Assembly (NCBI GenBank): GCA_031422435.1
Contig: JANPLU010000048.1
Location: 1-32,000 of the forward strand
Source: Acaryochloridaceae cyanobacterium VAR_48_metabat_390
GTDB lineage: Bacteria > Cyanobacteriota > Cyanobacteriia > Thermosynechococcales > Thermosynechococcaceae
Direction: 5' to 3'
DNA: 32,000 nt
Part shown: piece after piece, positions 2,044 through 31,303 of the stretch
Numbering within the stretch: position 1 is the first letter of the stretch
Layout: every line of letters begins with the position of its first letter
Translations under genes and position numbers: made by a program
The notes under the pieces: model-generated
What the model was told of the DNA's origin: nothing
The model's input: only the letters and a program-made list of their open reading frames with translations
Databases searched by the model: none

Positions 2044-2767
2044 TTTCCTGACAAATGGCAGCAAAGGCCGCTGCGGGGTCGGCGGACTCTGTGATGGGAC
2101 GACCAATGACGAGATGATTAGCACCAGCGGCGATCGCCTCAGCAGGCGTTAGTGCGCGCTGTTGGTCGCCCAAGGCCGCACCCTTAGGCCGCACCCCAGG
2201 ACACACCAGCAAAAAGTTATCCCCACAGATTTGTCGCAGTTGACTGGCTTCTTGAGGAGAACACACTGCGCCACTCAACCCAGATTCTTTTGCTAATAGC
2301 GCCATCTGAAGGGCATACTCTGGAAGCTCTAGCGGGATTTTGAGATCAAAGGCTAGTTCCCGAGCAGACAGGCTCGTGAGTACCGTAATTGCAATAACCT
2401 TGGGTGGCGCAACCCCTGTTTGGGCTGCTCCTTCAATTGCGGCAGCTTGAGCAGCTTTAAGCCCCACTCGTCCGTTGGTGGCATGAACTGTTAGCAAATC
2501 TACGCCATACCGACCTGCGGCGCGACAGGCTCCGGCAACGGTGTTGGGGATATCGTGGAGCTTTAGGTCTAAGAAGATTTTCTTCTGATGCTGTTTCAAA
2601 TAGTCCAGAATACTAGGGCCGCTGCTGACAAATAGCTCTAGACCCACTTTCCAAAACTGCACCTCGCTGAGAGAGTCTATGAGGGCGATCGCCGCATCTT
2701 TGCTTGGTACATCTAGAGGCACGATGATGCGATCGGCAATGGCAGTAGGAGTAGCTGAAGAATTCAC
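2027..2767 (-). CDS. pyrF: orotidine 5'-phosphate decarboxylase
   Basis: Carries the OMP decarboxylase signatures [15 protein letters not shown] and [13 protein letters not shown], at typical length. Confidence 0.9.
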
Positions 2768-2812
2768 AAAACGTCCCCAAAATATTTGCTCTTATTATGG
2801 CAGGTCAATGGG

Positions 2813-3280
2813 TTATGGCAGGTCAACAGAATCAATGAATGACGGAAGAAAGTCTTGACTTAAAATCTGATCTGCCCCATAGAGACAATTTGATGGGAAG
2901 GATATTGAGAGCAACCCCGTCTCATCACTGGCATCTTCGACGGCGTCTTGATAGCACTGCTCAATCTGCGCCTCAAAATAGGACTTAAGCGATGGATACT
3001 TTCGCAGTAGTCGGCTAATTTGCTTACGAGACTCTCGAATGCTACTTTCCCAACTGGGCGATCGCCGCTCCGCCTGGTGCTGCCATTTCAGCAGATGCAT
3101 CAGCAGTCGGGTGAGCTGACTATCGATCGCATCCCGATGCCGATTTCCCAAATCTTCTACCTCTTCAATCAGATGGGCGAGATCCAGCTCATCAAACCGA
3201 CCCTCCCGCAAAAGTCCAACCGTTTGGCTCACCCAATCGACAAAATCTAAGTCGTAAAGCCTTGGTTTTGCTAGTGTCAT
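2813..3280 (-). CDS. DUF29 domain protein
   Basis: N-terminus LYDLDFVDWVSQTVGLLREGRFDELDLAHLIEEVEDLG is the characteristic DUF29 pattern common in cyanobacteria. Confidence 0.75.
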   Translation of the reverse strand: MTLAKPRLYDLDFVDWVSQTVGLLREGRFDELDLAHLIEEVEDLGNRHRDAIDSQLTRLLMHLLKWQHQAERRSPSWESSIRESRKQISRLLRKYPSLKSYFEAQIEQCYQDAVEDASDETGLLSISFPSNCLYGADQILSQDFLPSFIDSVDLP

Positions 3281-22407: not shown

Positions 22408-23343
22408 GTGAAGCAGGCTACCCTACATCAGCTCCAGGTCTTTGAGGCGATCGCCAAACACAGCAGCTTTACCAAAGCCGCAGAAGAGCTATATCTGACG
22501 CAGCCCACGGTTTCTCAGCAAATGAAGCAGCTCACAAAGGCGATCGGGATGCCGCTATTTGAGCAGCTTGGCAAGCGCCTTTACCTTACAGAAGCAGGCG
22601 AAGAAGTGCTTAAAAGCAGCCGCGATATTTCTACGCGGTTCTCAGATTTAGAGATGACCCTTGCCAACCTGCGCGGCATGAAGCAGGGCAAGCTCCGCAT
22701 TTCGGCTATCACAACCGCTAAATACTTTGTCCCCAGGCTGCTGGGGCCTTTTCGACAGCTTTACCCTGGCATCACCATTGCGTTTCAAGTGACCAATCGG
22801 CAGCAGGTACTAGATCGCTTAGAGCAGAATCTAGACGACCTCTACTTTATTGGGCAGCCTTCCAAAAGTGCAGATATTTGCGTGCGCCCCGTTATGGAAA
22901 ATCCGCTGGTGGTAGTGGCACCTCAGAATCATCCGTTGGCAAAAGCGGAATCCATTTCGCTTCAGCGCATGGCACAAGAGCCATTTATTATGCGGGAATC
23001 TGGCTCTGGTACGCGAATGGCGGTAGAAGACTTTTTTGCAGAAAACCACGTTGAAATGAATGTGGTGATGGAAATTGGCAGCAATGAGGCCATTAAGCAG
23101 GCGATCGTGGGAGGGTTGGGGATTTCGGTGCTGTCGCGTCATTCTCTAGCGCTAGAAGGGATTCATGGACCGCTGACTATTTTGAACGTAGAAGGCTTTC
23201 CGCTCCAGCGCCATTGGTATGTGATCTATCCCGAAAGTAAGCAGCTCTCTATCGTCGCTAAGACGTTCCTAGATTTTCTTTTTACAGAGGGTCGCCAAAT
23301 TGCGAAACAGGCCGATATGGACTTTGTTGCGTCTGAGCATTAG
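22408..23343 (+). CDS. ndhR: LysR-family (CbbR/RbcR-like) regulator, NdhR/CcmR candidate by context
   Basis: HTH LHQLQVFEAIAKHSSFTKAAEELYLTQPTVSQQMKQL. GTG start preceded by aaggag. It sits immediately upstream of ndhF3-ndhD3-cupA. Confidence 0.75.
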   Translation: MKQATLHQLQVFEAIAKHSSFTKAAEELYLTQPTVSQQMKQLTKAIGMPLFEQLGKRLYLTEAGEEVLKSSRDISTRFSDLEMTLANLRGMKQGKLRISAITTAKYFVPRLLGPFRQLYPGITIAFQVTNRQQVLDRLEQNLDDLYFIGQPSKSADICVRPVMENPLVVVAPQNHPLAKAESISLQRMAQEPFIMRESGSGTRMAVEDFFAENHVEMNVVMEIGSNEAIKQAIVGGLGISVLSRHSLALEGIHGPLTILNVEGFPLQRHWYVIYPESKQLSIVAKTFLDFLFTEGRQIAKQADMDFVASEH

Positions 23344-23552
23344 ATAGGCTTCTTCTGTTCTTGTCTTATTAAAAATTGATATAGTCTATGGCTTAAGAGA
23401 GCGAGCTTAGGGACTGAATGATCGCCCTCCTAGACTCATTTTCATTAAAGGACTGATATCTAAAAAGCGTTGTAAATTGATCCCTTCTTTCATAGCCTAT
23501 CTCTCCCACGATCAGGTACACATACTCTTTTTGAAGTCTTTCTAGACAAAAT

Positions 23553-23567
23553 ATAGGCTTTATCTAT
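23553..23567. promoter_or_regulatory. candidate LysR operator ATAG-N7-CTAT upstream of ndhF3
   Basis: ataggctttatctat lies about 86-100 nt upstream of the ndhF3 ATG. Downstream there are three ATAG-N8-nnAT half-degenerate sites (23598, 23612, 23630) and an inverted repeat gctttatctattg / caatagataaaac. Confidence 0.5.
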
Positions 23568-23652
23568 TGTTATCATACAAAATCTGGTCTTCAATCAATA
23601 GATAAAACACGATAGTCTTATCTCAATCCATAGATAAATGGGTATAGATTTG

Positions 23653-25497
23653 ATGCCGCAGTTTTGGATTGAAACAATTTGGTTAGTCCCGTGCTATTCC
23701 CTGTTAGGGGCAGCGCTAACCATTCCCTGGTCGCCAGGAATTTTGTCCCGTACAGGGCCACGGCCTGCGGGCTACATCAACCTGTTAATGACTTTTTGCT
23801 CCTTTTTACATAGTGCGATCGCCCTCTCCAAAATCTGGGGGCAACCCGCACAGCAGGTGTATTTCCCGTGGCTTCAGGTTGCCCACTTAGATTTGACCCT
23901 ACCCCTTGAAATTTCTGCGCTCTCCATTAGCGCCATGGTGCTGGTGACGGGGCTGAACTTTATGGCGCAGCTTTACGCCGTCGGCTACATGGAAATGGAC
24001 TGGGGCTGGGCGAGATTTTTTGGCTTTCTGGCCTTTTTTGAAGCGGGGATGTGCGCCCTAGTGCTGTGCAACTCCATCTTCTTTAGCTTCATGATTCTGG
24101 AGATTTTGACCCTTGGTACCTATGTATTGGTGGGGCTATGGTTTAGCCAGTCCCTCGTGGTGACAGGCGCACGCGATGCGTTTTTGACCAAACGGGTGGG
24201 TGACTTACTGCTGCTCATGGGGGTGCTGGCACTCTGGCCTATTGCGGGCACCTGGAATTTCACAGAACTCGCGCAATGGGCACAGAGTAATCCGGCACTG
24301 CCGCCAGGGACTGCCACCTTACTAGGGCTGGCCTTAATTGCAGGCCCTATGGGGAAGTGCGCTCAGTTTCCGCTTCATCTGTGGCTTGACGAAGCCATGG
24401 AAGGGCCGTTGCCCAGCACCATTTTGCGGAACTCGGTTGTGGTCGCCACCGGAGCCTGGGTTCTCATTAAGCTAGAGCCTGTATTGGCGCTTTCCCCTGT
24501 GGTGATGACCACCATGATTGGGATTGGTGCCGTTAGCGCCGTGGGCGGGACTTTGATTGCGATCGCCCAGATCGACATCAAACGCGCCCTGTCCTACAGC
24601 GTGACGGCCTATATGGGCTTGGTGTTTATTGCGGTAGGTACCCAGCAAAACGAAGCGGCGCTGCTGCTGGTGCTAATTCATGCGATCGCCATGGCGCTCT
24701 TAGTCATGAGTACCGGAACTATCGTCTGGTCTAACATCACCCAAGACCTCACTCAAATGGGTGGACTTTGGTCGCGCCGCCCCATTTCGGGCATCTCTTA
24801 CATCGTGGGCACCTTTGCCCTGATTGGCCTGCCACCCCTCGGCGGGTTTTGGGCATTGCTCAAGCTGCTGGATGGCTTATGGGGCACTCATCCTTTACTG
24901 GTTGTCGTGGTGCTGCTGGTCAATAGCCTAACGGCCTTTAGCCTCACCCGCAAATTTGGCCTGATCTTTGGCGGCAAGCCCACACCCATGACCGTCCGTG
25001 CCCCAGAAGTGCTGTGGCCGATGATCATTCCCATGACCTTGGCAATGGGGGTAGCGCTCCATTTACCGCTGATTTTGCAGACGCTTGACCTGCTGCCCGA
25101 TTGGGCAGTTCTCAATAAAGATGCGGCATTAGTTTTAACCTGGTCTAGCATTTTGGGCTTAAGCCTGGGTGCGGTGGTCTACCTTAACCCATCCATTCAA
25201 AAGCCCATCCAGCTTCCGGTTCAGTCGGTTCAAAAGCTATTGGCGGCAGATTTCTATACCCCTCAGATTTATCGTTCCACCATTGTGCTTGGGGTTGCAG
25301 TGCTCTCTCGCATTACGGACTGGATTGACCGCTTTATTGTGGATGGCTTTATTAACGCCATTGGGCTGGCCTCAATTTTAAGTGGGGAGAGCCTCAAATT
25401 CAGCAATACGGGTCAGTCACAGTCTTACCTTTTAACTATTGTGGTGGGCATTTCGGTGATCGGTCTAATGCTGGCTTGGTCTATTCTTCCTGGCTAA
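23653..25497 (+). CDS. ndhF3: NAD(P)H-quinone oxidoreductase subunit F, CO2-uptake paralogue
   Basis: NuoL/NdhF polytopic membrane protein. The context with ndhD, cupA, cupS and LysR indicates F3. The start at MPQFWIETIWLVP (23653) is preferred over 23638. Confidence 0.85.
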   Translation: MPQFWIETIWLVPCYSLLGAALTIPWSPGILSRTGPRPAGYINLLMTFCSFLHSAIALSKIWGQPAQQVYFPWLQVAHLDLTLPLEISALSISAMVLVTGLNFMAQLYAVGYMEMDWGWARFFGFLAFFEAGMCALVLCNSIFFSFMILEILTLGTYVLVGLWFSQSLVVTGARDAFLTKRVGDLLLLMGVLALWPIAGTWNFTELAQWAQSNPALPPGTATLLGLALIAGPMGKCAQFPLHLWLDEAMEGPLPSTILRNSVVVATGAWVLIKLEPVLALSPVVMTTMIGIGAVSAVGGTLIAIAQIDIKRALSYSVTAYMGLVFIAVGTQQNEAALLLVLIHAIAMALLVMSTGTIVWSNITQDLTQMGGLWSRRPISGISYIVGTFALIGLPPLGGFWALLKLLDGLWGTHPLLVVVVLLVNSLTAFSLTRKFGLIFGGKPTPMTVRAPEVLWPMIIPMTLAMGVALHLPLILQTLDLLPDWAVLNKDAALVLTWSSILGLSLGAVVYLNPSIQKPIQLPVQSVQKLLAADFYTPQIYRSTIVLGVAVLSRITDWIDRFIVDGFINAIGLASILSGESLKFSNTGQSQSYLLTIVVGISVIGLMLAWSILPG

Positions 25498-25537
25498 TTT
25501 TTTCGACTTGTTTTAGTAAAAGTGAGAGTTAAAACGA

Positions 25538-26251
25538 ATGAATAATGCTTCTTTAACATCTAAAGTTTCTCGTCGTCGTATGCTCCAATTTGGAGCAGGC
25601 GCGGTAGGTACGTCCGTCGCAGCCTCTACTTTAGGGCAAGTGTTTATGCCAACAGCTCCGGCGATCGCCCAAAGTAACATGACCCCCGATGAAGCGCTGC
25701 GTCAGCTCATGGAAGGCAACCAGCGCTTTGTTGCCCAAAAGCGAAAATCTCCTAACCAGGATGTGATTCGACTCAATGAAGTCGCAAAAGGTCAAAAGCC
25801 CTTTGCTGCCATTCTGGGGTGTGCCGACTCGCGGGTGCCTTCAGAAATTGTCTTTGACCAAGGTTTAGGCGATCTCTTTGTCTGTCGCATTGCAGGCAAT
25901 ATTGCCACTCCTCAACAAATTGGAAGCTTGGAATTCGGTTCTGCTGTGCTGGGAACCAAAGTCATTATGATCATGGGGCACGAGCGCTGTGGTGCTGTGG
26001 ACGCAACGCTCAAAGGAACTCCGGTTCCGGGGCAAATTGGTAGTTTATTAGATGCCATCAGGCCGTCTCTACCCCAATCTAAAGGTCTCCCTGGCGATCC
26101 TTTAGAAAATGCCGCTAAAGCCAATATTATCTACCAGGTTGAGAAGCTTAAAAAATCACCCGTCTTGGCTGAACTCATTACCGCAGGCAAGCTCAAGATT
26201 GTTGGAGGCTACTATGACCTCGATAAAGGAACGGTTGCTTTAGTGGGTTGA
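25538..26251 (+). CDS. beta-class carbonic anhydrase with twin-arginine (Tat) signal peptide
   Basis: Tat motif SRRRMLQFGAGAV followed by AIA-QS. Beta-CA zinc ligands are present in CADSR and HERCGAV. The gaps to ndhF3 and to ndhD3 are 40 and 43 nt. Confidence 0.9.
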   Translation: MNNASLTSKVSRRRMLQFGAGAVGTSVAASTLGQVFMPTAPAIAQSNMTPDEALRQLMEGNQRFVAQKRKSPNQDVIRLNEVAKGQKPFAAILGCADSRVPSEIVFDQGLGDLFVCRIAGNIATPQQIGSLEFGSAVLGTKVIMIMGHERCGAVDATLKGTPVPGQIGSLLDAIRPSLPQSKGLPGDPLENAAKANIIYQVEKLKKSPVLAELITAGKLKIVGGYYDLDKGTVALVG

Positions 26252-26294
26252 TGTTGAGTTGAGTGATTTGTGCCGTTGAGGTCAAGGGGTTGCA

Positions 26295-27857
26295 ATGTTG
26301 TTGAGTCTTTTAATTTGGCTACCCGTTTTGGGTGCAGCACTAATTGGGTTTTGGCCGCAGAACCTCTCAGAACAGTGGGTCAAACGGCTTGCCCTGATGG
26401 TCAGCACCGTCTTAGTCGGTCAGACCGTTTGGGTGATTAGCCAGTTTGACCTGTCTCAATCTGGCTTCCAGATGCGTGAAATTTTAGATTGGATTGAGCC
26501 ACTGGGCTTAAGCTACCACCTTGGGGTGGATGGTCTATCTTTGCCGCTGGTAGTGCTAAACAGCCTCTTGACCTGGACTGCTATTTATAGCAGCCCTGCT
26601 AAAACCATTCGTCCACGTCTATATTATGTGCTGGTGCTGCTGGTCAATGCAGGGGTGACGGGCGCGTTTTTGGCACAGAACCTGCTGCTGTTCTTTCTAT
26701 TTTATGAAGTCGAGCTGATTCCGCTCTATCTTCTAATTGCTGTGTGGGGTGGCGCTCAGCGCGGGTACGCAGCAACTAAGTTTTTAATTTATACGGCAGT
26801 CTCTGGCATTTTAATTTTGGCTGGCTTTCTAGGGTTGACCTGGCTGGGTCATGCCTCAAGCTTTGACTACGAGGCGGTCCAAACTGTGGTTAGCACTCTG
26901 CCCCTGGTGCTGCAAGTTCTACTGCTGGGCGTTTTGATTTTAGGCTTCGGCATTAAAACCCCCTTGGTGCCTTTACACACCTGGCTACCCGATGCCTATG
27001 TTGAAGCCTCTCCCCCTATTGCGATTTTGTTGGGTGGGGTATTAGCAAAGCTCGGCACCTATGGACTGTTTCGGTTTGGCCTAGGGCTGCTGCCAGAAGC
27101 CTGGAAAAGTATTGCGCCTTTGCTGGCTATATGGGCTGTGGTAATTGTGATGTATGGGGCACTGGCGGCGATCGCCCAGCACGACATCAAGCGCATGGTC
27201 GCCTATAGCTCCATCGGACACATGGGCTATGTATTGCTGGGCGGTGCAGCGCTGACAGAACTGAGCATCGTAGGTGCGGTATCTCAAATGGTTGCCCACG
27301 GCTTTATCTTGGCGCTGCTGTTTTATCTGGTTGGCATTATTGAGGCGAAAGTCGGCACCCGCGAATTATCAGCGCTGAATGGATTGATGAGTCCGGTGCG
27401 CGGTTTGCCCTTGGTGAGTGCCCTATTGGTTTTGGGCGGAATGGCAAGCGCAGGGATTCCAGGACTGGTTGGATTTATTGCAGAGTTTTTGGTTTTTCAA
27501 GGCAGCTACGCCGTGTTCTCCTGGCAAACGCTGCTTTGCGTCGTCGGGACAGGCTTTACCGCAGTCTACTTCGTTATTTTGCTCAACCGCACCTGTTTTG
27601 GACGTTTAGATAGCGCCTTAGCCTACTACCCTAAGGTGCTTTGGTCAGAGCGATTTCCCGCCCTGCTTTTAGCCGCTGTGATCCTATTTTTGGGAGTACA
27701 GCCTTACTGGCTTGTCCACTGGAGCGAACCAACTACGGCGGCAATGGCTCAAGTAGCGGCTGCCTATAAACCTTCGCCGAACGCGATGAGTGTGAAGGCA
27801 GTGGCTCAATCGCTCACGGACTTAACAGGGCGCGATTCTCTTTTGACGAACCTCTAA
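26295..27857 (+). CDS. ndhD3: NAD(P)H-quinone oxidoreductase subunit D (chain 4), CO2-uptake paralogue
   Basis: NuoM/NdhD family (HTWLPDAYVEASPP, AQHDIKRMVAYSSIGHMG). Assigned as D3 by context. Confidence 0.85.
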   Translation: MLLSLLIWLPVLGAALIGFWPQNLSEQWVKRLALMVSTVLVGQTVWVISQFDLSQSGFQMREILDWIEPLGLSYHLGVDGLSLPLVVLNSLLTWTAIYSSPAKTIRPRLYYVLVLLVNAGVTGAFLAQNLLLFFLFYEVELIPLYLLIAVWGGAQRGYAATKFLIYTAVSGILILAGFLGLTWLGHASSFDYEAVQTVVSTLPLVLQVLLLGVLILGFGIKTPLVPLHTWLPDAYVEASPPIAILLGGVLAKLGTYGLFRFGLGLLPEAWKSIAPLLAIWAVVIVMYGALAAIAQHDIKRMVAYSSIGHMGYVLLGGAALTELSIVGAVSQMVAHGFILALLFYLVGIIEAKVGTRELSALNGLMSPVRGLPLVSALLVLGGMASAGIPGLVGFIAEFLVFQGSYAVFSWQTLLCVVGTGFTAVYFVILLNRTCFGRLDSALAYYPKVLWSERFPALLLAAVILFLGVQPYWLVHWSEPTTAAMAQVAAAYKPSPNAMSVKAVAQSLTDLTGRDSLLTNL

Positions 27858-27947: not shown

Positions 27948-27990
27948 CTACCGTCTCGACATTGAATGTATGACTTGGAGACATGCTGTT

Positions 27991-29286
27991 ATGCAAACCC
28001 TCGATAGACCCACAACCCTTCCACCCTCTACCCACGAATTTGCAGAAATTATCCATCGCTTAGAAGCAGGCGGTGCCATGCTGCCGGATTCCCCCGAAAA
28101 CCTCATGCAGATCATCGGCATCTACAAAGCCTACGCCGTACCGATGGACTTCTACTGGCGCGACCTGCTTTATATTGCCGAGAATGTCTTTCTCAACCCT
28201 TTACCGTTTTTCAAATACTTTCTGCCTCAAGAATACCTAGACCTTCACAACCACTACGCCGGAGACGATGCCGATCTGCGAATTTGGCGCGGGGAAGCAA
28301 CTGCTCACCCTGAGCTGCTTGAGTTTATGGAAAAAGGCGAAACAGGCAAAATGCCTAAGCTGTTTCATCACCTATTCCATGACCGCATCAACATGGAATT
28401 TGCCGAAGCCTGTATGCAGGCGATGCTCTGGCACGGACGCGACATGGGCTGGGGACAATTTGACGGCTACCTCGACAGCGATGAGTACCGCGCTAATGCC
28501 GATCGCGCTATCAAAGCCTACTTGAAGTACAACCCGCCGATGCTGGCACTGTACAAACTCTTCCCTGACATGTTTTTAGAGCAGTGCCGGATGATGTCCT
28601 ACACCGCCAACCTAGGCTTATTTTGGGAAGTGATGGCTCCTGTCTTCTTTGAAATGTCCGATATTTTCGATGAAGGTGGCTTTGCAGGCGTGCCTGATGC
28701 GATGAACTTTTTGGTGAACGGGATTTTTGCGATCGCAGGTCGCCCCATCTACCACCACGTTTATGTACGAGGCGAATGTTTTGAGATCATTCCCAAATCT
28801 AAGGGGTTTATGTGGCTGTACGAAGCCGCCCTCCCCTACGTCGAAGCCGTCTTTTATCGCACCGCCCCCTTCCGAGGCACCAAATCTTACAACGCCCAAG
28901 CCGGACAAGTGCCCACAGAGCAAAAAGACTTCCACTACGGCATTTTATACGCCGATGTGTTTCCGGTAGGCTCGGCAGGAATTCCGCCTACTTTACTGAT
29001 GCAGGATATGCTGCACTTCCTGCCGCCTTACCTAGTGGAATACTACCAGCAGCACTGTCGTGGCGAAGACGATATGCTAATCCAGCTTGGCATTACCTTT
29101 CAAAGATCGATGTATTGCGTTACTTCTGCGGTCATTCAGGCACTGCGACAGGCATTGCTATATCCATTGGATGATCCTAACCCTAAACATTTGATGGCAA
29201 ATCGTGCTTTTTTTGAAGCTCAGATCGATCGCTTTAAGCGACCTGAAGCACGGTTAAGGGATATTCAGGTGCAAAGCTATCGGTAA
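27991..29286 (+). CDS. cupA: CO2-hydration protein CupA (ChpY)
   Basis: ChpXY family blocks (PSTHEFAEIIHRLEAGGAML, PFFKYFLPQ). Its roughly 430-aa length fits CupA rather than the shorter CupB. The ATG at 27991 has GGAG 10 nt upstream; an alternative ATG lies at 27970. Confidence 0.8.
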   Translation: MQTLDRPTTLPPSTHEFAEIIHRLEAGGAMLPDSPENLMQIIGIYKAYAVPMDFYWRDLLYIAENVFLNPLPFFKYFLPQEYLDLHNHYAGDDADLRIWRGEATAHPELLEFMEKGETGKMPKLFHHLFHDRINMEFAEACMQAMLWHGRDMGWGQFDGYLDSDEYRANADRAIKAYLKYNPPMLALYKLFPDMFLEQCRMMSYTANLGLFWEVMAPVFFEMSDIFDEGGFAGVPDAMNFLVNGIFAIAGRPIYHHVYVRGECFEIIPKSKGFMWLYEAALPYVEAVFYRTAPFRGTKSYNAQAGQVPTEQKDFHYGILYADVFPVGSAGIPPTLLMQDMLHFLPPYLVEYYQQHCRGEDDMLIQLGITFQRSMYCVTSAVIQALRQALLYPLDDPNPKHLMANRAFFEAQIDRFKRPEARLRDIQVQSYR

Positions 29287-29303
29287 AATCCCCTCACCCC
29301 CAA

Positions 29304-29326
29304 CCCCTCTCCCAGTGGGAGAGGGG
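29304..29326 (+). repeat. G/C-rich hairpin repeat (cccctctccc-agt-gggagagggg) within a ccctcacccccaacccc context
   Basis: Perfect 10-bp stem. This sequence class is a common dispersed cyanobacterial intergenic repeat. Two further hairpins lie at 29412..29431 and 29444..29461. Confidence 0.6.
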
Positions 29327-29518
29327 AGCAAGATGGAGAGAAGCGTTCAAGCTTCATCTTCTTTGACTCTATCTTTAGCCACCCACCCAAGCACCCTTCT
29401 GGAGGGAGTTTGAGGGACGCAGCCGTCTCTCAATGGGGGGGCACGGGGGGCTAGTCCCCCGAAATTACACAACCCGTCAACCGAGCTACTCCATCAACCC
29501 AGCCACCCAATCAAAACC

Positions 29519-29920
29519 ATGCCCACCATCGTAGACATCGCCGTCAGCAACCCCTCCTTCAGCACCCTCGTCACCGCCGTCAGCGCCGCAGGCTTAGTCG
29601 AAACCCTCCAAAGCCCTGGCCCCTTCACCGTCTTCGCCCCCACCGACGAAGCCTTCGCCAAACTCCCCCCTGGCACCATCCAAACCCTAGTACAAAATAT
29701 TCCCCAGCTTTCCCGTATCCTGACCTTCCACGTTGTCTCTGGCAAATATACAAAAGCCGACCTAGCCCAACTCGGCACCGTTACCTCCATCGAAGGCTCC
29801 CCCATCAACATCGACTGCTCCGAAGGATTTGAAATCAAAAACGCTACCGTCATTGCTGCCGACATCGAAGCCGACAACGGCATCATTCACGTCATTGATA
29901 CTGTTATTTTGATGGGGTAG
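29519..29920 (+). CDS. cupS: fasciclin (FAS1/MPB70-like) domain protein without signal peptide, CupS candidate
   Basis: FAS1 motifs [10 protein letters not shown] and [10 protein letters not shown]. At 133 aa (~15 kDa) and directly downstream of cupA, it matches Synechocystis sll1735, which as I recall was annotated MPB70-like. Confidence 0.7.
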
Positions 29921-29959: not shown

Positions 29960-31303
29960 ATGGGAAATTGGCCTGCGATCGCCGCCTCTACCATCTTCAT
30001 CAGCGTATTCGTCCTCATCATCACCGAGAAAACCCACTTGATGATTGCAGGGTTGTTGGGAGCCTTACTGTTGGTGATGCTCAATATTCTGTCGCTGCAA
30101 GAGGCAGTCGCCTACATTAGCCGCAGCCACGCCACCCTAGCGCTATTTCTAGGCGTGATGATTATGGTGCGCGTTTTCCAGCCCACCCGCATTTTTGAAT
30201 ATCTTGCCACCCAGATTGTCATTCTTGCCAAAGGTGAAGGAAAACGATTGCTGCTCGGCATTGTCGCCATTACGACCCCCATCTGTGCCGTTTTGCCCAA
30301 CGCCACCACCGTCATGCTGTTGGCTCCCCTCGTGCCAACCATGGCAGCAGAGCTAAACATTAACTTTGTGCCGCTGCTCATTTTAATGGTCTTTGTTGCC
30401 AACAGCGCTGGGCTGCTTACCCTCATTGGCGACCCTGCCACCTTTATCGTGGGCGATGCCGTTAATATTAGCTTTTTGGATTATTTAGGAAAGCTAAGCT
30501 TGGGTGGGGCAATCGCCATTCTTACCATTTTAGTGCTGCTGCCCAGACTCTTCCCGACGATTTGGCGAACTCAGCTAGAGCATCCCGAACAGCTCCCCAC
30601 CATCCAAATTCAGCATCGCCGAATGCTATTGCCGGGGGGCATTATTGTGGGTGCAGTCCTACTCTTTTTTGTCATTGGCGAACTGTTGCCAACGCCTATT
30701 TCTCCTGCAACCATTGCCCTTTTGGGGGCAACCTTGTGCCTGCTCCTGAGCCATCACAGCAAGACTAATTCCGTCCCAGATATTCTCAAGGACGTAGACT
30801 GGAGCACCCTGATTTTTTTCATGAGCATCTTCGTCCTGATTGGCGGACTTGAAAAAACGGGCGTTATTGCAGGAGCTTCCGGCATTCTTGCGGTGATTTT
30901 AGGTAAAAACATTGCCCTAGGGTCGATTCTGCTGCTGTTTACCGTAGGCATTCTATCTAGCCTCATTCCCAACATTCCCCTTGTGGTGGCGATGGTGCCT
31001 CTGCTGAAGCAGTATGTCGTCACCGTCGGCTTAGCCAGCCCCGCCATTTTAGACCCCAATTTTGAAGGGCAACTTCCCCCCGAAATTCTGCCGCTGTTTT
31101 ACGCCATGATGTACGGCGCAACCCTGGGCGGCAACGGTACCCTCGTGGGAGCATCTTCTAACATTGTGGCCGCAGGCATTGCAGAGCAGCACGGCAGGCA
31201 CATTTCGTTTCAAACTTTTTTGAAGTATGGCATCCCCGTCATGGTGTGTCAGCTCGTCACAGTCGGGCTATACGTCGTGGTGCGGTTTCTGGTTTTTCGC
31301 TAG
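29960..31303 (+). CDS. ArsB/NhaD-superfamily (SLC13-like) ion permease
   Basis: A 447-aa polytopic membrane protein whose two-halves architecture and sequence character are typical of ArsB/NhaD permeases. It starts 39 nt after cupS. Confidence 0.8.
   Translation: MGNWPAIAASTIFISVFVLIITEKTHLMIAGLLGALLLVMLNILSLQEAVAYISRSHATLALFLGVMIMVRVFQPTRIFEYLATQIVILAKGEGKRLLLGIVAITTPICAVLPNATTVMLLAPLVPTMAAELNINFVPLLILMVFVANSAGLLTLIGDPATFIVGDAVNISFLDYLGKLSLGGAIAILTILVLLPRLFPTIWRTQLEHPEQLPTIQIQHRRMLLPGGIIVGAVLLFFVIGELLPTPISPATIALLGATLCLLLSHHSKTNSVPDILKDVDWSTLIFFMSIFVLIGGLEKTGVIAGASGILAVILGKNIALGSILLLFTVGILSSLIPNIPLVVAMVPLLKQYVVTVGLASPAILDPNFEGQLPPEILPLFYAMMYGATLGGNGTLVGASSNIVAAGIAEQHGRHISFQTFLKYGIPVMVCQLVTVGLYVVVRFLVFR

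Follow-up and report, generated by a model that had tools for sequence, protein, structure and literature searches.

The 32,000-nt stretch of DNA analysed here, hereafter the window, comprises positions 1 to 32,000 of contig JANPLU010000048.1 (assembly GCA_031422435.1) from Acaryochloridaceae cyanobacterium VAR_48_metabat_390. Between ndhF3 and ndhD3 of an operon for the CO2-uptake complex NDH-1MS it carries a gene for a beta-class carbonic anhydrase (CA) with a twin-arginine (Tat) leader. An earlier note on this DNA, made from its letters, had described this gene in its setting and had regarded the layout as special to this genome. As detailed below, the description of the gene holds. The layout, on the other hand, is a common, ancient and often lost operon variant that is present in annotated public genomes and is not peculiar to this one. 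The genes and features of the operon are as follows.

23638..25497, + strand: ndhF3 (619 aa), matching TIGR01960 ndhF3_CO2 at 970 bits (cut-off 589).
25498..25537, + strand: 40-nt spacer between ndhF3 and the CA gene (RNA fold z +0.98).
25538..25669, + strand: predicted Tat signal peptide of the CA (residues 1-44, with S11-R12-R13 and with A42-I43-A44 followed by Q45), the motif being read from the sequence.
25670..26251, + strand: predicted mature beta-CA domain (residues 45-237) and stop codon, with the PF00484 match at 131 bits, the match to Rv3588c and the invariant zinc site.
26252..26294, + strand: 43-nt spacer between the CA gene and ndhD3, with an AAGGGG Shine-Dalgarno-like motif (RNA fold z +0.41).
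26295..27857, + strand: ndhD3 (520 aa), matching NF005611 at 801 bits (cut-off 764) and Pfam Proton_antipo_M.
27970..29286, + strand: cupA/chpY, CO2-hydration protein (438 aa), matching PF10216 ChpXY at 538 bits and TIGR01964 at 780 bits.
29519..29920, + strand: fasciclin-domain gene in the cupS position (133 aa), matching PF02469 (2.1e-40).

The NdhF3-, NdhD3- and CupA-specific subfamilies are all present, in order and on one strand, which identifies the cluster as an NDH-1MS operon. The proposal that the CA gene is embedded in an ndhF3-ndhD3-cupA-cupS cluster was confirmed by the TIGR01960, NF005611 and TIGR01964 matches together with the fasciclin gene at the cupS position, and the proposed spacing on the same strand, 40 nt behind ndhF3 and 43 nt ahead of ndhD3, proved exact. 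We take the fasciclin gene to be cupS from its position and from the MPB70/fasciclin-like nature of Synechocystis sll1735; a homologue of it follows cupA in many related loci. The canonical ndhF3-ndhD3-cupA-cupS operon (NDH-1MS/NDH-1(3)) of Synechocystis, Synechococcus and Thermosynechococcus comprises these four genes too, likewise arranged in this order on a single strand. Compared with it, the window operon contains the extra CA gene between ndhF3 and ndhD3, and a LysR regulator gene is adjacent to it as in Microcystis.

The CA open reading frame (ORF) spans 25538-26251 on the + strand and encodes 237 aa, its ATG being the first possible start past an in-frame TGA at 25523. A profile search with Pfam Pro_CA PF00484, which the earlier note had suggested, gave 131.1 bits (cut-off 25.7, E 5.6e-38, profile positions 2-156 of 156), and a weaker NCBIfam match was obtained with PRK15219 'carbonic anhydrase family protein'. 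The two catalytic motifs, CADSR at residues 95-99 (nt 25820-25834) and HERCG at residues 148-152 (nt 25979-25993), make up the complete beta-CA CxDxR...HxxC set, and C95, D97, R99, H148 and C151 are invariant in an alignment of 44 sequences of the CA family. The zinc site that had been read as intact is thus borne out. The zinc ligands (C95, H148 and C151) and the D97-R99 dyad align with the active-site residues of Mycobacterium tuberculosis Rv3588c (CanB, 2a5v/1ym3), the best sequence match in the PDB (E 1e-35). This closest solved structure shares 39% identity and the same Cys-Asp-Arg-His-Cys active-site set with the window CA. It differs in being mycobacterial, in having been crystallised without an export leader (the match runs from window residue 47, chain residue 9) and in having no link to a CO2-uptake complex.

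An AlphaFold2 (AF2) model of the window CA, built on 44 family members, had a mean predicted local distance difference test score (pLDDT) of 77.6, with 170 of the 193 non-leader residues at 70 or above. Residues 1-44 formed the sole segment with a pLDDT below 50, and this disordered segment coincides exactly with the predicted leader. For the part outside the leader, the best PDB match of the model was 2a5v, with a template modelling (TM) score of 0.84-0.87 and a root-mean-square deviation of 1.8 A, in agreement with a beta-CA fold. The carboxysomal beta-CA CcaA (PDB 5swc), which shares the fold, was also matched, both in the PDB sequence search (E 2.9e-14) and by Foldseek. CcaA has no signal peptide, carries a C-terminal carboxysome-targeting extension and reaches only 26% identity in the structural alignment.

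The ratio of nonsynonymous to synonymous substitution rates (dN/dS) of the window CA is 0.08-0.11, which indicates purifying selection. Because the position of the gene is also conserved across other genomes, the ORF is not a chance product. Among close relatives the CA retains 84-89% amino acid identity versus 89-98% for its neighbours, so it evolves faster than they do yet remains constrained. From its sequence and its model, the window gene is predicted to encode a catalytically competent beta-CA and is almost certainly functional. As a separate observation, protein P0276 (437 aa) shows 47% identity to the CA family over 79% of the query and is possibly a fused or tandem double CA.

The Tat leader was judged directly by its defining features, namely the motif, the n- and h-regions, the AxA site and conservation. 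It reads MNNASLTSKVSRRRMLQFGAGAVGTSVAASTLGQVFMPTAPAIA, with QS following the cleavage site. The n-region carries a charge of +4 and ends in S11-R12-R13-R14-M15-L16-Q17. The h-region, residues 15-36 (22 residues), is Gly/Ala/Thr-rich and mildly hydrophobic, with a grand average of hydropathy (GRAVY) of 1.06, and is followed by the AxA site A42-I43-A44/Q45. An S-R-R-x-[LM]-[LF]-[KQ]-F-G-A-G motif together with AxA occurs in 112-115 of the 120 closest homologues, the exceptions being gene calls truncated at the N-terminus or variants with a single R-to-Q change. In the alignment of 44 sequences R12 and R13 never vary, and every full-length operon-embedded CA from 40 further loci has the RR motif, the AxA site and the catalytic motifs. 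The leader itself is under purifying selection, with a dN/dS of 0.05-0.24 against three relatives. The twin-arginine leader with an AIA-QS site, as first noticed in the letters, is supported in all these respects, and it points to export of the window CA from the cytoplasm.

No cysteine was found in the leaders of the 120 homologues, and the window CA has none before residue 95; the mature CA is therefore predicted to be soluble rather than a lipoprotein. A variant of the operon-embedded CA was observed in relatives of Oscillatoria sp. Prado101 and O. princeps (metagenome loci L028 and L029, 4509-5279). This protein of 256 aa has a Tat leader ending in ...AGLGC, followed by an Asn/Pro/Thr-rich linker, so that a lipid-anchored form is possible, reminiscent of the lipoprotein site that has been reported for Synechocystis EcaB.

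The same leader bears on a reading in which the protein would stay inside the cell. In that case it would be a regulatory partner of CupA/CupB at the cytoplasmic face, a role that has been put forward for Synechocystis EcaB, and its N-terminal region would be an uncleaved anchor or an inefficient export signal. We consider this very unlikely. The signal is a textbook cleavable one with a conserved AxA/Q site, and its h-region, with the hydropathy given above, is ill-suited to a stable anchor. Moreover, CupA lies on the cytoplasmic side, so that a Tat-exported protein would be separated from it by the membrane. Active CA that is free in the cytoplasm also abolishes the accumulation of inorganic carbon (Ci), as seen upon heterologous CA expression in Synechococcus. 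The operon linkage of the CA gene with cupA speaks for a cytoplasmic partner, and so do an EcaB-CupA/CupB interaction and an association with thylakoid membranes, both reported by Sun et al. 2019 according to later papers that summarise that study.

Next to the operon start and behind cupA lie three further features that may concern its expression.

22408..23343, + strand: regulator gene of the LysR family and of CbbR/CcmR-like type, immediately ahead of the operon (Pfam HTH_1 and LysR_substrate).
23344..23637, + strand: intergenic region upstream of ndhF3, a presumed promoter/operator, with promoter-like hexamers at 23543-23570 (9/12).
29304..29370, + strand: strong GC-rich hairpin or hairpins after cupA, consisting of a ten-pair stem CCCCTCTCCC-AGT-GGGAGAGGGG (29304-29326) and a second hairpin with a T-rich tail.

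The promoter and terminator scans were at chance level overall (9 promoter-like sites in the window versus 8.1 expected) and were used only for the absence of a terminator in both CA spacers. The terminator scan found no terminator-like hairpin in either CA spacer, and neither spacer folds better than shuffled sequence. Given the same strand, the short spacers (40 and 43 nt) and the lack of any terminator-like structure, we may reasonably infer that the CA gene is co-transcribed with ndhF3 and ndhD3. A terminator or a strong internal promoter splitting the CA from the ndh genes had been named beforehand as evidence to the contrary; the spacers contain no terminator, and a single promoter-like site occurs at chance level.

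The best NCBIfam match of the LysR gene is CbbR, below the cut-off of that model. Its position is kept in the five closest genomes, and its product is 57% identical to the LysR protein upstream of the Microcystis operon, whose gene is named ccmR (PMC4419860). ATAG/CTAT-type half-sites are clustered at 23550-23645, upstream of and across the ndhF3 start, an arrangement that recalls LysR/NdhR operators. Within the cluster lie ATAGGCTTTATCTAT at 23554-23568, with 7-nt spacing, and three one-mismatch ATAG-N8-CTAT matches at 23598-23645. A search for the NdhR-type ATAG-N8-CTAT operator across the whole window gave 11 matches versus 9 expected, which is not significant, and it was not used as evidence. 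From the adjacent LysR gene, induction of the CA at low CO2 through a CcmR/NdhR-type regulator would be expected. Constitutive expression has been reported for ecaB and for the equivalent operon genes of Microcystis PCC 7806 (PMC4419860).

As for the region behind cupA, the fold of 29280-29380 has an energy of -37.9 kcal/mol (z -2.86), and the second stem was also flagged by the terminator scan at 29340-29355. These hairpins may act as a terminator or attenuator before the cupS-like gene, or they may stabilise the upstream mRNA.

The spread of the arrangement was then considered. A genome scan with the window CA returned 7 loci, 5 of them cyanobacterial, since its peptide patterns were too specific; the breadth was therefore obtained from exact-protein look-ups and from a metagenome scan anchored on cupA. 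All five of the closest genomes, namely Altericista sp. CCNU0014 and four Thermosynechococcaceae/Acaryochloridaceae metagenome-assembled genomes, show the order LysR-ndhF3-CA-ndhD3-cupA(-cupS). More distant members of the CA family (50-70% identity) occupy the same junction in Nostoc sp. CHAB 5824, Fischerella sp. CENA71, Stenomitos and Allocoleopsis. Further distant carriers are Microcoleus vaginatus PCC 9802, Nostocales HT-58-2, Aphanothece hegewaldii and Pannus brasiliensis, the last with two tandem copies. The CA also lies at the ndhF3/ndhD3 junction of Microcystis aeruginosa NIES-843 (AP009552, about 1.355 Mb), a reference genome from 2007. Altogether, the CA was located between ndhF3 and ndhD3 in 14/14 family members whose context was examined.

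In the cupA-anchored scan, 68 of the 80 loci resolved the junction; a beta-CA was found directly upstream of ndhD3 in 33 of them, and 35 were without it. When loci with cupA at least 95% identical were collapsed, 17-18 of 52 lineages had the CA, that is about one third, a figure which may be an overestimate because the sample consisted of the 80 best matches to CupA sequences from CA-bearing operons. About two thirds of the lineages were canonical. A block of 14 loci in this sample is Microcystis aeruginosa, its CA being 97-98% identical to NCBI Microcystis proteins. A survey of the ndhF3-ndhD3 junction across cyanobacteria, as the earlier note had suggested, thus reveals a widespread layout (14/14 family members and 33/68 resolved cupA loci). 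The belief that the architecture was confined to this genome or unseen elsewhere could not be upheld, given Microcystis, Nostoc, Fischerella, Microcoleus and about one third of the sampled cupA loci.

Some variations on the layout were encountered along the way. Two tandem Tat beta-CA genes stand between ndhF3 and ndhD3 in the metagenome locus L031 (3666-5180) and in L095 (6106-7723, Pannus brasiliensis CCIBt3594), and the second copy in L031 has a divergent leader (TRRDLLQYG...). In the metagenome locus L021 a leaderless 256-aa CcaA-like beta-CA gene, which belongs to a different family, is present just upstream of ndhF3 (2358-3128). Locus L097 (Nostocales HT-58-2) has, besides the embedded Tat CA, a leaderless Pro_CA gene for a protein of 194 aa, situated about 1.6 kb before ndhF3 (1852-2436).

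None of the papers searched, among them those found to mention both ecaB and ndhF3 apart from PMC7281370, explicitly places a CA gene at the ndhF3/ndhD3 junction. An earlier explicit description may exist, most likely in Sun et al. 2019 (New Phytol) or Sandrini et al. 2014 (ISME J).

The best-known protein of comparable architecture is EcaB of Synechocystis sp. PCC 6803 (slr0051). It is reported to be an active CA that is up-regulated together with CupA and associated with NDH-1(3/4), which it is proposed to support (Sun et al. 2019, as summarised in PMC10096703, PMC9283085 and PMC11360081). Like EcaB, the window CA is a cyanobacterial non-carboxysomal beta-CA with a twin-arginine leader. In contrast, slr0051 is encoded away from ndhF3-ndhD3-cupA whereas the window CA gene is inside the operon, and a lipoprotein attachment site is reported for EcaB (PMC10096703) whereas the window leader has no cysteine. 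Homologues were sought with three queries: the window CA, its Microcystis counterpart and the cysteine-containing Oscillatoria CA; neither slr0051 nor any other Synechocystis protein was among the best 120 matches per query, down to 61-66% identity. In published BLAST comparisons, other cyanobacterial genes called 'ecaB' share only 38-41% identity with slr0051. By its sequence, the window CA would be 'EcaB-like' in architecture only, and its kinship with slr0051 would be distant at best.

The homologue that occupies this operon position in Microcystis is 56% identical to the window CA and most likely the gene known there as ecaB. In the Microcystis literature, the periplasmic 'ecaB' of NIES-843 is MAE15130, and the embedded CA sits about where that locus tag falls by gene index, which is consistent with their identity but is not proof of it. 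A search of literature supplements for NIES-843 locus tags gave no match.

That the synteny is conserved in several orders of cyanobacteria speaks for a functional link between the CA and the CO2-uptake complex. We tentatively favour, with a confidence that falls slightly short of an even chance, a reading in which the CA is exported, works in the periplasm and regenerates CO2 from the external bicarbonate pool as NDH-1MS/CupA draws CO2 in. The CA gene would be transcribed with ndhF3-ndhD3-cupA from a promoter downstream of the LysR (CcmR-like) gene. Its product would be made with the twin-arginine leader, exported from the cytoplasm and soluble once mature. In the periplasm, most probably its compartment, it would keep HCO3- and CO2 equilibrated. 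The CO2 that NDH-1MS/CupA removes inside the cell would then be replenished at the cell surface from the much larger external bicarbonate pool. Export would be required, since a CA left in the cytoplasm would dissipate the bicarbonate accumulated there.

Most of the named carriers of the CA are freshwater and terrestrial taxa that form colonies, filaments or mats, and to our knowledge the small unicellular model strains have no embedded CA gene. Diffusion boundary layers would make the regeneration of CO2 at the surface pay in such taxa, hence our preference for the periplasm, although this is an argument and not a test. The proposed principle, a low-CO2-linked external enzyme that regenerates CO2 from bicarbonate at the cell surface for uptake, is shared with periplasmic or external CAs of algae (Chlamydomonas CAH1) and with the alpha-class EcaA. 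These enzymes are of the alpha class, take another export route (Sec for Cyanothece EcaA) and have no operon link to a CO2-hydrating complex, so the analogy is functional only.

Two groups of observations weigh against periplasmic CO2 regeneration, the first concerning the site of action and the second, taken up further below, the history of the gene. Microcystis has the same embedded CA, yet its external CA activity is cited as negligible (Song and Qiu 2007, as quoted in PMC4419860). Synechocystis EcaB was reported mostly in thylakoid membranes and not in the periplasm (PMC10096703). The activity of Cyanothece EcaB is called unverified in the literature.

The first two of these observations favour a variant in which the same exported, co-transcribed CA works in the thylakoid lumen. 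In the acidic lumen it would turn bicarbonate into CO2 that reaches CupA through or across the membrane. Either the CupA site would be fed from the lumenal side, or a CO2/HCO3- cycle would, at high light and low CO2, relieve the membrane of surplus proton gradient. We regard this as a serious rival, although less likely than the periplasmic reading. The Tat pathway of cyanobacteria is established to serve both the plasma and the thylakoid membranes, and the CA gene is tightly linked to the genes of a thylakoid complex. The thylakoid-bound bulk of Synechocystis EcaB is reported to be tied to NDH-1(3/4) and to photoprotection, and of the two hypotheses in print one lets CupA/B receive its CO2 from the lumen (PMC10096703). 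On the other hand, EcaB was also found by proteomics of the periplasm, as stated in that same paper. The equilibrium at lumenal pH is already on the side of CO2, so that a CA adds little unless bicarbonate enters, and we know of no route for bicarbonate into the cyanobacterial lumen. The cycle would be futile for carbon gain, and no sequence feature of the window CA separates lumenal from periplasmic Tat substrates.

A stronger form of the lumenal reading, which we regard as improbable, is that NDH-1MS has in the Tat beta-CA subfamily a dedicated trans-side partner in the lumen, one that is absent from all the model strains. Opposite CupA, it would form with it a two-compartment, membrane-spanning CO2/HCO3- converter. 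If true, this would settle both the source of CupA's CO2 and the purpose of EcaB-type enzymes.

Coming back to periplasmic CO2 regeneration, the second group of observations is genomic. On a neighbour-joining tree of NdhD3 and CupA from 57 taxa, CA presence is patchy, with at least 14 state changes, which implies frequent loss. In one pair of metagenome loci, L016 (at 1994) and L020 (156-1028), the flanks are 95-97% nucleotide-identical and the difference is a clean indel of about 873 nt, consisting of the CA gene and its spacers. Frequent loss suggests that the contribution of the CA is conditional. The GC content at third codon positions (GC3) is 0.437 in the CA gene, well below the 0.56-0.63 of ndhF3, ndhD3 and cupA, in spite of its long residence in the operon. 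Finally, the promoter-like site of chance frequency lies inside the CA ORF, at 26101-26130.

Such observations would suit a CA whose role is unrelated to NDH-1MS, for example in periplasmic pH or bicarbonate homeostasis, its position being a harmless historical accident and its expression possibly driven by an internal promoter of its own. The gene is often lost without loss of the operon, two thirds of the operons function without it, its GC3 is lower and its protein evolves faster than those of its neighbours, and its ORF contains the hexamer pair just mentioned. We give this explanation only a slim chance. The junction is identical in taxa of several cyanobacterial orders, in 14/14 family members examined, and the CA is under strong purifying selection. 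Tandem duplication of the CA has occurred at the same site in Pannus and L031, and the internal promoter-like match is one expected by chance. In addition, the CA co-diverges with the flanking genes: when sequences of the same loci are compared pairwise, CA distances correlate with NdhF3, NdhD3 and CupA distances, with Mantel r values of 0.75, 0.66 and 0.69, respectively (p<=0.0005). Together with the patchy presence, the clean indel and the constant junction, this correlation is better fitted by an old operon member that was lost many times than by repeated independent insertion. Recent horizontal insertion was rejected as a general explanation, as the junction never varies and the CA diverges in step with the genes on either side.

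The physiological role of the 'external' beta-CAs of the EcaB type is still undefined in recent reviews (PMC10096703), and their proposed link to NDH-1 CO2-uptake complexes has so far rested mainly on one Synechocystis study. The locked junction, the co-divergence and the clean gain or loss of the cassette give independent genomic support for a link between CA and CO2 uptake. They also indicate tractable organisms for testing that link: Microcystis, Nostoc and natural pairs with and without the gene, of which L016 and L020 are an example. For the window itself, the CA is an ordinary member of a common arrangement. Its value is comparative, and it represents a little-discussed accessory gene.

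A few neighbouring features complete the picture. An Rfam scan of the window returned one tRNA and nothing else. The metagenome loci L030, L048 and L057 contain 3.7-4.9 kb of extra DNA between ndhD3 and cupA, by appearance operon-disrupting insertions, and a short cupA fragment lies near ndhD3 in L048. After the cupS-like gene, the window has a gene for a CitMHS/ArsB-superfamily transporter (447 aa, 29960-31303, + strand) with weak NhaD-like matches. Its position is kept in L002, while one gene intervenes in L005, and it may be an ion transporter linked to Ci uptake or an unrelated one.

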